In this document: in pieces, positions 930-3,900 of the stretch | How the letters are laid out: each line of letters opens with the position of its first letter | Numbering within the stretch: the stretch's first letter is position 1 | Origin: an archaeon | GTDB lineage: Archaea > Asgardarchaeota > Thorarchaeia > Thorarchaeales > Thorarchaeaceae | Direction of reading: 5' to 3' | NCBI GenBank assembly: GCA_024276825.1 | Contig: JAJRWI010000026.1 | Location: 1 to 43,206, forward strand | DNA: 43,206 bases | Notes under the pieces: generated by a model | Told to the model about the DNA's origin: nothing | Seen by the model: only the letters and a program-made list of their open reading frames with translations | Databases searched by the model: none | Program-made: the position numbers and the translations under genes

Positions 930-3900
930 TTAGTCAATGTCAGCTTTAAGAATTATACTCAAGTCATAGAGATTCTCTTCGCCACAGTAGGGACAAATAA
1001 TTCCAACGAATTGAGAATCTATATTCTGGATATAGTGATTGGTCTCTGGAAAGTTAGAGGGATCTCTCTTTCTCTGCTGGAGATCTGACAATGTAATAGT
1101 TTCAAGTTTATAGTTATCAAATTCATAGTGTCTTAATGGAAAGTTGCACTCTAAGCAGTTTTCTATTGAAGGCTTAAGTAGATCATTAATTCGATATGAA
1201 AGTTCTGAAACAAGAATTCTTAGAACTTTCTCATCACTGGAATTCACCCATCCAGAAATTATTAGATTGCTGCTCATCGGTTCAAGTTTGCATTGAATCT
1301 CAATTATCCCGCGATTATTTGGATCCTCGGGATGAATCATAACTTTGTAATCAAAGAATGAGTTGATAGTTTCATATTTGAGAGTAACAGGCTCTCCAAA
1401 TAGTGAGTAGATTCTATACTTTGCATCAAGATAGATTCTAAGTAGCATTTCTGATGTAATCTTGGCACCTTTAGTATGAGTTCCTGGCTTGTCTAATGAA
1501 TATCTTCTTGGAGGCGAAGATTCAATCATTTGTGCTATAGTTCTAGCATCTACTGGAGTCATCCTACTAGTATCATCAGGAACAAACTTTATGACATTCT
1601 CAGTATGTGTAATTACCTTCTCTTTTTGTTCTTTGTCACCTGACATTCTATATTCGACATGCACACGAACTCTAATAGTGCCTTGATTCAGAATTTGAAG
1701 TTGAATAGGCACTGATTTAATGTTGATGTTCGTATCAGATTTGGAAATGCCAGGAATATCTCCCACGATTATCTCCTTTTGGGTTCGTATTTCATACGTA
1801 TCAAAACTTGCAATTGGCTGAGATTTTGTATCACCTTCAATGGATATGTTCAATTTTGTGTCGAGAATTGGTCGTTTTGACCTGTTTTGAATTTCTATAT
1901 CGAGATTATGTCTGTCGTATTTATCAGCGATAATTTTGAAATTAAACAAAAGTGGAAAGCTGGTCTTGATTTTGTAGACAGTAGATATAACCATGACAGT
2001 GATAAAGAATGAAAATATGGGAATTAGACTTTGGATGGTAGCAATTAGTGCATCACTTGGATCCAAGGGGTTGAATCCGCGTTCAACCTCCCAAAGGTCT
2101 GAATGACCATCATTATCGGAGTCTGACGATAGAGGGTTTGTACCAATAATGTATTCCTCTAAATTTGTAAGTCCATCATCATCAGAGTCATTTGAGGAGT
2201 CATCAACCAATGGGTCAAATCCATATTTAATTTCCCATCCATCATCTAAGCCATCATTATCAGTATCAGGGTTAATTGGATTTGTGCCAAGGTAGTATTC
2301 CTGCAGATTAGAAATTGTGTCATTGTCTGGATCTTGATTGCTATCATCAACTAATGGGTTTAATGAATAATAAACCTCCCAAGTATCATTCATCAAGTCA
2401 GAATCAGTATCTATAGAAAGGGGATTCGTGAAATAAATGAAAATTTCATCATAGTCGTTGAGAGTGTCATTGTCAGAATCAGGATTCAGCGGATCAGTGC
2501 TGTAAATAGTGATTTCCAGACCATCAATAATATTATCACCATCACTATCGTTCAATAGCGGATTGGTCGAATATTGGAATAGTTCCAAATAGTCATTTAC
2601 GTAGTCATAATCAGTATCATTATTGGTTGCATTGGTATGATAGTAGAACACTTCTAACCCATCAATCAGCAGATCAGAGTCTGTGTCGTTGTCGAGCGGA
2701 TTTGTCAAGTATGTGAGAGTTTCATTGCCATCTAGCAATAGGTCATTGTCAGTGTCGTTATCGAGTGGATTAGTTCCAATATCGAAAACCTCTGCTCTAT
2801 CAGAGAGAAAGTCATTGTCAGTATCATAAAGAATTGGACTTGTGCCATAGATAAAAACTTCCAGACCGTCAAGCAATAGATCATCATCAGTATCATTGTC
2901 TAGAGGTAGAGTATTGTATTGCATGACTTCAGCACCATCAGTGATAAGATCATTATCTGTGTCATTATTCAGAGCAGAAGTATGGTGAATAAAAATCTCA
3001 TCATAATCATTTAAATCATCAAAGTCAGTGTCATTGTTCAACGGATCAGTTCCATATCTTATGTATTCATAGTCGATAATCAAATCATCATCACTATCCG
3101 AGTCATTTGGGTTAGTTCCGAGAAAGCTTTCAGAATAAGATGAAATGAGATCAGCATCTGGATCTTGGACCAATAGGCAACTTGTTCTTGTATATCTTAG
3201 GTCTCCGCTAAGACCATTCCAATAGAGAAAACTGCTAGACTCGTTTAATGTAAGAGCATAAACATTGGTGTCATACGAACCAAACACGATATCCAACTGG
3301 TTATCATTATTGATATCACCGCAAGCGGGTGACGAAACAAGCCAATCCCCAGCTGTAAAATTCCACAATGAAGTACCATTGCGTCCACAGACTATGTAGA
3401 CTCTATTGTTTAGTATTCCTCCACCAACTACAACATCCAGAAGATAGTCTGAATTAACATCCACCAGAGTTGGAGAGGATGATATCCAGTAATCTGTCAG
3501 AAAAGACCAGATCAAATCGCCACTTTTTGCATCAAGAGCATAGAGCTTTGAGTCATAAGAGCCAAAGACAACATCAATGTCCATATCCCCATCAACATCA
3601 CCTAATGCAGGAGATGATGTGATATCTCCGCCAGTATTATATGACCAAATCAAAGATCCATCTGTACCATTTAATGAGTAAAAATTATCATTGCTTGACC
3701 CAACAAAAACCTCAAGAATTGTGTCATTATTGACATCAGCCAAAGCAGGTGATCCCTCAAATCCGTTTGATCCCGTTGAATAATTCCAAAGCATCATACC
3801 AGTAGAAGCTTGCAAGGCAAAAAGATACGAGTTAATGGTCCCAATTACAATTTCTTCAAATTCATCACCATTAATGTTCCCAATAGCCGCTGACCCCATA

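Follow-up and report, generated by a model that had tools for sequence, protein, structure and literature searches.

What kind of module sits at the inner end of a large thorarchaeal surface protein? The window analysed here, a 43,206-nucleotide stretch of contig JAJRWI010000026.1, encodes a protein (P0001) that an initial annotation described as a receptor whose cytoplasmic tail resembles an adaptin or coatomer appendage. Eukaryotic vesicle coats have their interaction hubs in the appendage ears: in AP-2 alpha, COP and BBSome subunits the appendage consists of an Ig-like sandwich and a platform domain, and ears recruit accessory proteins via short motifs. The origin of the ear bears on the rise of the endomembrane system in the archaeal ancestor of eukaryotes.

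The gene is an open reading frame of 1199 uninterrupted codons on the minus strand (930-4529), starting at a TTG at 4529 or an ATG close by. Positions 930-1975 hold residues 852-1199 and the stop codon. The protein is laid out as a signal anchor, an eight-bladed FG-GAP/PQQ propeller, a TSP3 calcium stalk, a single transmembrane (TM) helix and a tail of ~345 residues:

930-4529, minus strand: whole gene P0001, a type-I membrane protein of 1199 residues, stop codon at 930-932 (ORF list and translation).
4422-4529, minus strand: residues 1-36, basic N-region and hydrophobic stretch 13-36, a signal peptide or anchor (hydropathy scan).
3084-4370, minus strand: residues ~54-482, extracellular FG-GAP/PQQ-type beta-propeller (Pfam and motif count).
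2055-3083, minus strand: residues ~483-825, acidic stalk of TSP3-type calcium-binding repeats (Pfam and motif matches).
1968-2054, minus strand: residues 826-854, the sole TM helix, acidic outside and basic inside (hydropathy and flank charges).
1587-1952, minus strand: residues ~860-981 (tail 9-130), predicted seven-strand Ig-like beta-sandwich, a GAE/ear-type lobe (AF2 secondary structure).
1176-1586, minus strand: residues ~982-1118 (tail 131-267), predicted linker helix and alpha/beta platform-like lobe of helix, four strands and helix (AF2, Foldseek).
933-1175, minus strand: residues 1119-1199 (tail 268-348), split zinc ribbon, CxxC ... CPYCG (invariant alignment columns).

The families that Pfam recognises in P0001 are those of the ectodomain. 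The propeller matches Beta-prop_ACSF4 (1.9e-49), PQQ_2 (2.2e-23) and FG-GAP_3 (3.2e-18), and a motif count finds D-[VI]-[ND]-x-D calcium loops with a period of ~46 residues; the stalk matches TSP3_bac (3.6e-12) and repeats NDTDxD with a period of ~23 residues (ten strict motif matches). Sequence features place the tail in the cytoplasm, as the annotation held, because hydropathy identifies two hydrophobic segments only (13-36 and 826-854), the TM helix is preceded by one K/R against eight D/E and followed by five K/R, N-x-S/T sequons are concentrated in the ectodomain (25 in 792 residues, against three in the 347-residue tail), and TM and signal segments are absent from all three full-length soluble relatives of the tail. 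On this topology evidence, a tail lying outside the cell is rejected.

Relatives of the tail were collected in an exhaustive phmmer search of 1.84e9 representatives, which returns P0003 (2.4e-15), P0004 (1.8e-9) and P0005 (4.7e-7) and none further, and in a profile scan of 86 genomes of the taxonomic family, which adds P0006. P0003, P0004 and P0006 are soluble proteins of ~950 residues. The tail segments are genuine domains and no chance pattern, because hhalign of the tail against these three gives a probability of 98.2% (E 6e-14, 311 columns, with P0003 608-937 paired to tail 13-344), the zinc-ribbon cysteines are invariant, and the AlphaFold model of the tail places a seven-strand sandwich, an alpha/beta part and the zinc ribbon in that order. 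The strings that the annotation had singled out (LDIEIQNRSKRPILDTKLNISIEG...IRVRVHVEY, EIQCKLEPMSSNLIISGWVNSSDEKVLRILVSEL, CLEC and CPYC) do follow the TM helix in the order claimed, and the ribbon it placed after the alpha/beta segment is confirmed by cysteines 1125, 1128, 1179 and 1182, invariant in all five family sequences. No other part of the module is conserved as well as this ribbon, which is split by a conserved helical insert of ~50 residues (per-region identity 0.25, compared with 0.17 in the other lobes). In the linker helix, tail R145 is invariant in the family alignment and belongs to an Asp-x-Arg motif in all sequences but one; in a K-G-W/Y motif, an aromatic residue follows an invariant glycine, likewise in four of five. 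A tail made of a CARDB domain alone is rejected: ~220 more conserved residues come after the sandwich.

The family is patchily distributed, occurring in 3 of the 86 family genomes and in 1 of 28 in one genus. A scan of 301 genomes of the phylum with the tail has genome G005, the source of P0004, as its sole match, and a scan of genome contigs with the tail family has only the G005 contig. Genome scans found no tail paralogue in the window's own genome, and two metagenome-contig scans for the tail family gave no match. Word-indexed searches with the tail and with the P0003 tail returned nothing new, and one with the family profile returned unrelated VCBS/FG-GAP proteins only. A full-length profile, scanned against 400 phylum genomes, gave propeller-only matches and no further family member; P0007 and P0008, which are matches of this kind, were rejected from the family.

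What fold does the module adopt? The alignment under both AlphaFold models, of the tail and of P0003, holds four to five sequences only. The tail model has a mean pLDDT of 53, with 40-50 in the platform lobe against 64-80 for the same lobe in P0003. The full P0003 model (pLDDT 74.7) comprises a propeller (1-362), helices (365-590) that form a rod between propeller and sandwich, a seven-strand sandwich (604-712), a beta-alpha-beta4-alpha unit (741-857) and the zinc ribbon. When the tail model is compared with the PDB by Foldseek, the check that the annotation proposed, appendage families head the list: the COPI appendage 9qpq_H (2.6e-7) and the alpha-adaptin appendages 1w80/3hs8/2vj0 (~1e-6) come first, and BBS7 (2e-5), the beta2 appendage and the gamma-COP appendage also rank high. 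With P0003 the first match is BBS7 (6vbv_7, 5.9e-14 over 883 columns), followed by the Fanconi anaemia core complex (7kzp_Q/P), BBSome chains 6vnw_C/6voa_C and BBS9. The ESM-Atlas search, a language-model embedding that takes the sequence only and is independent of AF2, puts nearest to P0003 600-860 named clusters of BBS GAE, of the appendages of alpha-adaptin, beta2-adaptin and gamma-COP, and of BBS7 GAE/platform, together with an FP100 (FANCAA family) and a TRS130-related cluster; its scores are all <0.9 and are therefore leads only.

Because the Foldseek searches and the language-model search agree on the families, the ear-plus-platform reading is supported at the fold level only, and the tail is predicted, with moderate confidence, to fold like a bilobed appendage ear with a zinc ribbon. 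The Ig-like sandwich subdomain of the adaptin/COPI appendage is present in the tail at this level. As the closest predicted fold, the ear of the annotation is supported, its platform more tentatively; a match in sequence does not go with them. In hmmscan of the whole P0001 and of the tail, up to E 1, none of PF02883, PF02296, PF09066, PF08752, PF16381, PF07718 and PF14806 appears. A PDB sequence profile search up to E 10 yields no adaptin, COP or BBS chain and only weak zinc-ribbon matches (e.g. RPA12, E 0.29), and the likeness to the end of alpha-adaptin that the annotation pointed out finds no statistical support in either Pfam or this profile search. The sole Pfam match of the tail, DUF5844 (E 0.04), is taken as chance. 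Scans of the window's own genome with PF02883, PF02296, PF14806 and PF07718 gave only chance matches elsewhere; a weak Coatomer_b_Cpla match was rejected, being TFIIB. A lead from the Atlas, PF05265, gave nothing.

The resemblance could also be generic: a commonplace sandwich of Ig-like or CARDB-like type, then a small, unrelated alpha/beta domain and a zinc ribbon, with appendages matched through a common arrangement. The tail matches have TM-scores of 0.18-0.35 and an rmsd of ~16 Å, complement C3c and glycosidase chains are listed among them, and the pLDDT of the second lobe is <50, all of which is consistent with such a reading. Rigid superposition of the tail backs the sandwich only, and transglutaminase, macroglobulin and glycosidase Ig domains score equally well; the VIA lists are filled by the sandwich (tail) or by the propeller (P0003 search), and the sole two-lobe VIA match is that of 9qpq_H residues 722-953 to tail 5-269 (rmsd 15.3 Å). 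Against this, the two-lobe appendages of COPI, AP-2 alpha, AP-2 beta2 and BBS7 top the tail search with near-full target coverage (257-275 alignment columns on targets of ~240 residues), in the search with the better P0003 model the first places again go to BBS7, BBS2 and BBS9 (880-940 columns), the sequence-only embedding gives the same families, and the beta-alpha-beta4-alpha order fits the TBP-like platform of adaptin ears (doi 10.1101/2024.02.06.579148). A merely generic likeness is thereby made unlikely.

What might such a module do beneath a membrane? It is fairly probable that P0001 is a surface receptor or adhesin that carries the bilobed ear-like module and zinc ribbon as a docking surface, gained by domain shuffling. 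Outside the cell, P0001 carries a calcium-loaded FG-GAP/PQQ propeller on the TSP3 calcium stalk; inside, the predicted GAE-type sandwich, the predicted alpha/beta platform lobe and the zinc ribbon with its helical insert follow the TM helix directly, the two lobes resembling the bilobed appendage found in subunits of AP-2, COPI and the BBSome. In its most likely role, the tail would offer a membrane-tethered docking surface on which at least one soluble partner is held at the site of ectodomain engagement, by analogy with the recruitment of accessory proteins by ears. Topology, domain order, homology in sequence to the soluble proteins and likeness at the fold level are shown here; the docking function, the identity of the partners and any link to membrane traffic, including the built-in trafficking adaptor that the annotation proposed, are inferred. 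The module was probably acquired through domain shuffling. Its sequence kin are confined to the C-terminal thirds of soluble proteins composed of propeller, helical part, ear and zinc ribbon, in a domain order like that of BBS2/7/9.

The genes around two relatives of the tail would suit a different role. P0001 itself is flanked by genes for small helical proteins and for an M23 peptidase, with no GTPase gene among its neighbours, and directly upstream (4749-6541) lie three small genes, among which Pfam matches neither Snf7 nor Vps4:

4749-5243: unassigned 164-aa gene, no Pfam Snf7 match.
5269-5850: small helical gene, no Pfam Snf7 match.
5963-6541: small helical gene, no Pfam Snf7 match.

Scans for sigma-70 promoters and terminators are not informative for an archaeon. 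P0004 (genome G005) and P0006 (genome G303) are encoded directly downstream of a 1500-residue protein and one to three DO-GTPase genes (PF19975, PF19993). The G005 giant has weak, sub-cut-off matches to GAP1-N2 and GAP1-M, and it is homologous to the G303 giant over the first ~480 residues (E 2e-38). Adjacency to DO-GTPase/GAP1 genes is thus absent for P0001 and present for P0004, and for P0006 it is given by the DO-GTPase matches and the homology of the giant. Accessory or defence systems are described as working at the membrane in many cases, with non-enzymatic sensor parts that vary (PMC7159879).

The module could accordingly belong first of all to NTPase 'conflict' or switch systems of the DO-GTPase/GAP1 type: the soluble relatives would couple a propeller sensor to a GTPase/GAP1 core, the copy on the receptor would have been captured and would connect an extracellular sensor with the switch, or else be an orphan or decoy, and the ear fold would be incidental to coats. 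Besides the two operons with their homologous giants, the patchy spread of the family is typical of accessory and defence systems (PMC7159879). The genome of the window, which is 98% complete, nevertheless has no GAP1-like giant that the G005 query could find, its DO-GTPase matches all fall below the family cut-off, and the neighbours of P0001 are of another kind; this role is possible, though on the unlikely side. It concerns function and is compatible with the fold reading.

A stronger form of the kinship is quite unlikely, namely that the soluble propeller-rod-GAE-platform-zinc-ribbon proteins are true prokaryotic kin of BBS2/7/9 and the adaptin-ear lineage, working with dedicated GTPases, and that the ear of the receptor is a cis-acting handle. 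Were this so, Asgard archaea would already have joined a surface receptor to a coat-like scaffold under GTPase control, in a primitive link of cargo to coat older than eukaryotic vesicle coats. As it is, P0001 indicates that an ear-like module can be attached directly to the inside of a single-pass surface protein in an Asgard archaeon, and that its sequence family also supplies the C-terminus of soluble, GTPase-adjacent proteins whose domain order is like that of BBSome subunits. Should the fold and docking be confirmed, the tail would be a tractable zinc-stabilised bait of ~345 residues for archaeal ear partners; should they not, P0001 would be another modular surface protein in a lineage that has many of them.

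How does the module compare with known systems? The appendages of AP-2 alpha/beta2 and COPI (1w80, 1b9k, 2iv9, 1e42, 1r4x, 9qpq_H) share the predicted sandwich-plus-platform fold with the tail, without sequence similarity; they sit on a flexible hinge behind an alpha-solenoid trunk, whereas the tail module starts almost directly behind the TM helix, has no solenoid and carries an additional zinc ribbon. BBS2, BBS7 and BBS9 (6vbv, 6vbu, 6vnw, 6xt9) share with P0003, P0004 and P0006 the order of propeller, helical or coiled part, GAE and platform, and both groups are associated with GTPases, the BBSome with ARL6 and the soluble relatives through their operons. In contrast with these subunits, the relatives have a far longer helical region, a zinc ribbon in place of the C-terminal helical domain and no sequence similarity, and the shared order may be convergent, because 7kzp_P/7kzp_Q score almost equally. 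P0001 itself has the GAE-platform part only: its propeller is extracellular, it lacks a helical rod, and a cytoplasmic propeller and coiled-coil before GAE-platform are found in the soluble relatives only.

In the published GAP1-N2-type DO-GTPase ternary systems, the proteins paired with GAP1-N2 carry FNIII repeats (Kaur, Burroughs, Iyer, Aravind 2020, PMC7159879). The relatives of the tail resemble them as the third or fourth gene of an operon with a DO-GTPase and in their patchy distribution, with propeller-ear proteins in place of FNIII-repeat proteins; P0001, in contrast, has none of these genes beside it, and the searches of its genome found no system of this type.

The closest precedents are archaeal. 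The annotation took the architecture to be undescribed, but Makarova et al. 2024 (doi 10.1101/2024.02.06.579148) report archaeal appendage-like (IG+TBP) regions with a zinc ribbon, one tied to a GOLD domain by a TM linker and others that follow PQQ/WD40 propellers, as well as appendage domains in Asgard ESCRT-I proteins, and propose a role as protein-interaction hub. Compared by description only, Meth_adaptin, Halo_adaptin and the Asgard ESCRT-I fusions share with the tail a two-lobe region, IG-like and TBP-like; P0001 shows their combination of IG and TBP with zinc ribbon or TM linker at the fold level only, its second lobe being poorly modelled. It differs from them in its FG-GAP propeller and TSP3 stalk outside the cell, in having no Vps4 nearby, unlike the ESCRT-linked loci, and in that the only sequence relatives of its tail lie in DO-GTPase/GAP1 operons, not in coat or ESCRT loci. 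P0001 is a new layout of a part already known in archaea.

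The receptor is encoded by a single open frame, and Pfam recognises two kinds of repeat in its outer part:

930-4529, minus strand: receptor gene, 1199 codons
First two thirds of the protein: beta-propeller (Beta-prop_ACSF4, 1.9e-49; PQQ_2, 2.2e-23; FG-GAP_3, 3.2e-18)
First two thirds of the protein: bacterial TSP3 repeats (3.6e-12)

By motif count, the ectodomain contains seven strict D-[VIL]-[ND]-x-D loops that recur every ~46 residues, the pattern implying an eighth, and at least ten NDTDxD-type repeats with a period of ~23 residues. Hydropathy gives two hydrophobic segments only, residues 13-36 and 826-854. 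The second is preceded by an acidic flank (one K/R, eight D/E) and followed by a basic one (five K/R), and the ectodomain carries 25 N-x-S/T sequons versus three in the tail. The receptor is therefore a type-I membrane protein with residues ~855-1199 in the cytoplasm; this is the stretch 930-1975 that the initial annotation had taken for a cytoplasmic tail. The propeller-plus-TSP3 ectodomain has undergone strong paralogous expansion, with 74 matching stretches in one other Asgard genome (G005) and 30 in another (G303). In G005 they lie on many contigs (e.g. C27, C87, C115, C84); the paralogue ORFs range from ~600 to more than 2000 aa, presumably with differing tails.

Pfam assigns no family to the tail (P0002, 348 aa). 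An exhaustive phmmer search over 1.84 billion cluster representatives returns three proteins:

P0003, soluble relative, 937 aa: E 2.4e-15
P0004, soluble relative, 980 aa: E 1.8e-9
P0005, short relative, 166 aa: E 4.7e-7

No second copy of the tail is found in the window's own genome, and a scan of 301 genomes of the phylum gives a match in G005 only, the protein being P0004. Profile scanning of 86 genomes of the GTDB family adds P0006 from G303, a more divergent soluble member, bringing the occurrence to 3 of 86 family genomes and, in one genus, 1 of 28. With the ectodomain so expanded (74 stretches in G005 alone) and the tail so rare, the receptor gene appears to combine a common extracellular part with a rare intracellular one.

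Aligned by hhalign against P0003, P0004 and P0006 together, the tail matches with 98.2% probability (E 6e-14, 311 columns), its residues 13-344 corresponding to P0003 608-937. Because the match runs across nearly the whole tail and is not confined to the zinc ribbon, the tail is, judged by alignment, one inherited module comprising the ribbon and the rest. The zinc-ribbon part is its best-conserved region. Across the module, the positions invariant in all five family sequences are four cysteines, the proline and glycine of the second knuckle, the glycine of a K-G-W/Y turn, one linker arginine, and an arginine, leucine and proline of the ~50-residue insert between the zinc knuckles. In P0005, a metagenome protein, the opening ~55 residues of a cytidine/dCMP deaminase domain are fused to the module's final platform strand, helix and zinc ribbon; it appears to be a truncated gene, a chimera or a product of misassembly. 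Outside the tail family, a 1019-aa cytoplasmic protein of a further Asgard genome (P0007; G317, contig C250, 5364-8423, locus L017) appears by eye to combine an FG-GAP-like propeller, an Ig-like segment, several winged-helix-like repeats, a roadblock/longin-like stretch and a terminal zinc ribbon.

The fold is best seen in P0003, whose full-length AlphaFold2 model from five sequences has a mean pLDDT of 74.7:

1-362: seven-blade propeller
365-590: seven long helices
604-712: seven-strand sandwich
741-857: strand, helix, four strands, helix (pLDDT 64-80)
After this lobe: zinc ribbon

The lobe at 741-857 runs beta-alpha-beta4-alpha, the order that Makarova et al. 2024 (doi 10.1101/2024.02.06.579148) give for the distal, TBP-like lobe in adaptin ears. 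The best Foldseek match of P0003 is BBS7 (6vbv_7, 5.9e-14, 883 columns), followed by chains of the Fanconi anaemia core complex (7kzp_Q, 7kzp_P), BBSome chains 6vnw_C and 6voa_C, and BBS9; in the BBSome subunits, at least, a propeller is likewise followed by coiled coil, sandwich and alpha/beta lobe. In the ESM Atlas, a method independent of AlphaFold, the nearest named clusters for P0003 600-860 are BBS1/2/7 GAE (0.81) and the alpha-adaptin appendage (0.80), scores that, like all those obtained, fall below 0.9 and serve as leads only. Further clusters are the beta2 and gamma-COP appendages, BBS7 GAE/platform, FP100 (FANCAA family) and a TRS130-related one, and 8 of the 10 best family-bearing hits share family or clan with the best.

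The tail's own AlphaFold2 model, from a four-sequence alignment, is weak (mean pLDDT 53), with a seven-strand sandwich at residues 9-130 (pLDDT 63-82) and then a predicted helix, four strands and helix at only 40-50. Two-lobed appendages head its Foldseek list in the PDB: a COPI appendage chain (9qpq_H, 2.6e-7), several alpha-adaptin appendages (1.5e-6 to 3e-5), BBS7 (2e-5), and the beta2-adaptin (3e-5) and gamma-COP (1.3e-4) appendages. Each appendage match covers ~260 columns on a ~240-residue target, roughly double what the sandwich alone would span. At the sequence level, Pfam gives nothing for the tail up to E 1, profile searching of the PDB to E 10 yields weak zinc-ribbon matches only, and four appendage models find nothing at the receptor locus in its own genome; the likeness to an alpha-adaptin motif proposed in the initial annotation is thus not borne out. 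A purely generic appendage resemblance is quite improbable beside the two-lobe span of the matches and the agreement of the ESM Atlas. The proposed adaptin/coatomer ear and platform find fold-level support in these rankings, with the tail's second lobe poorly modelled. An appendage-like fold of the tail is moderately supported: ear plus platform is the best available reading for the family and, via sequence homology, for the tail, as a fold prediction from very shallow alignments in which the tail's second lobe is not confidently modelled.

Two of the soluble relatives are encoded near GTPase genes. In G005 (L003, C118, 4289-12908), the P0004 gene overlaps the end of a gene for a 1552-aa protein, itself behind a DO-GTPase gene; this protein has weak, sub-cut-off GAP1-N2 and GAP1-M matches, found in G005 only. 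In G303 (L009, C160, 7602-17594), three DO-GTPase genes and a gene of 1491 aa precede that for P0006, and the two giants are homologous over their first ~480 residues (E 2e-38). An operon of one to three DO-GTPases, a ~1500-aa giant and a ~975-aa propeller/helical/ear-like/zinc-ribbon protein is thus kept in two Asgard genomes. Kaur et al. 2020 (PMC7159879) describe DO-GTPase/GAP1 systems as conflict systems switched by NTPases, patchy in occurrence, often close to the membrane and variable in their non-enzymatic sensor components; the tail family's distribution fits that patchiness. The module may be at heart a part of such a system captured by the receptor, a rather unlikely reading that concerns function and is compatible with the appendage fold. 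A search with the G005 query does not recover the GAP1-like giant from the window's genome (98% complete), where all DO-GTPase matches are below cut-off, so the receptor tail works without this system, or else with components diverged beyond recognition.

The tail is probably a membrane-tethered docking surface, which would bring in soluble partners at sites where its calcium-dependent ectodomain has been engaged, with the highly conserved insert of the zinc ribbon as the likely interface. Candidate partners lie nearest at hand directly upstream:

4749-6541, minus strand: genes for three small helical proteins (164, 193 and 192 aa) that match no Pfam family up to E 5

Elsewhere the window encodes Hdr/Mvh, NiFe hydrogenase, PEPCK, AFOR and two giant FG-GAP surface proteins. 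Between the genes of the latter, a 361-aa ORF (12677-13762, plus strand) has a weak PCI-domain match below cut-off (E 0.0017).

Archaeal appendage-like regions (IG plus TBP) are already published: one with a zinc ribbon, one tethered to a GOLD domain by a transmembrane linker, others preceded by PQQ/WD40 propellers, besides Asgard ESCRT-I proteins with appendage domains (Makarova et al. 2024). That study associates archaeal appendage proteins with ESCRT. Against these published descriptions, the initial annotation's view of the receptor architecture as undescribed is not supported. The literature yielded no paper on a BBSome-like domain order in Asgard proteins. In the published GAP1-N2 systems the pairing is with FNIII proteins, whereas the Asgard operons carry a propeller-ear protein, of the family whose member P0003 has BBS7, BBS2 and BBS9 as top PDB fold matches. 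Particular to the receptor are its layout of FG-GAP propeller, TSP3 stalk, transmembrane helix, ear and zinc ribbon, the extreme rarity of its tail family, and the tail's sequence-level kinship with BBS2/7/9-like soluble proteins.
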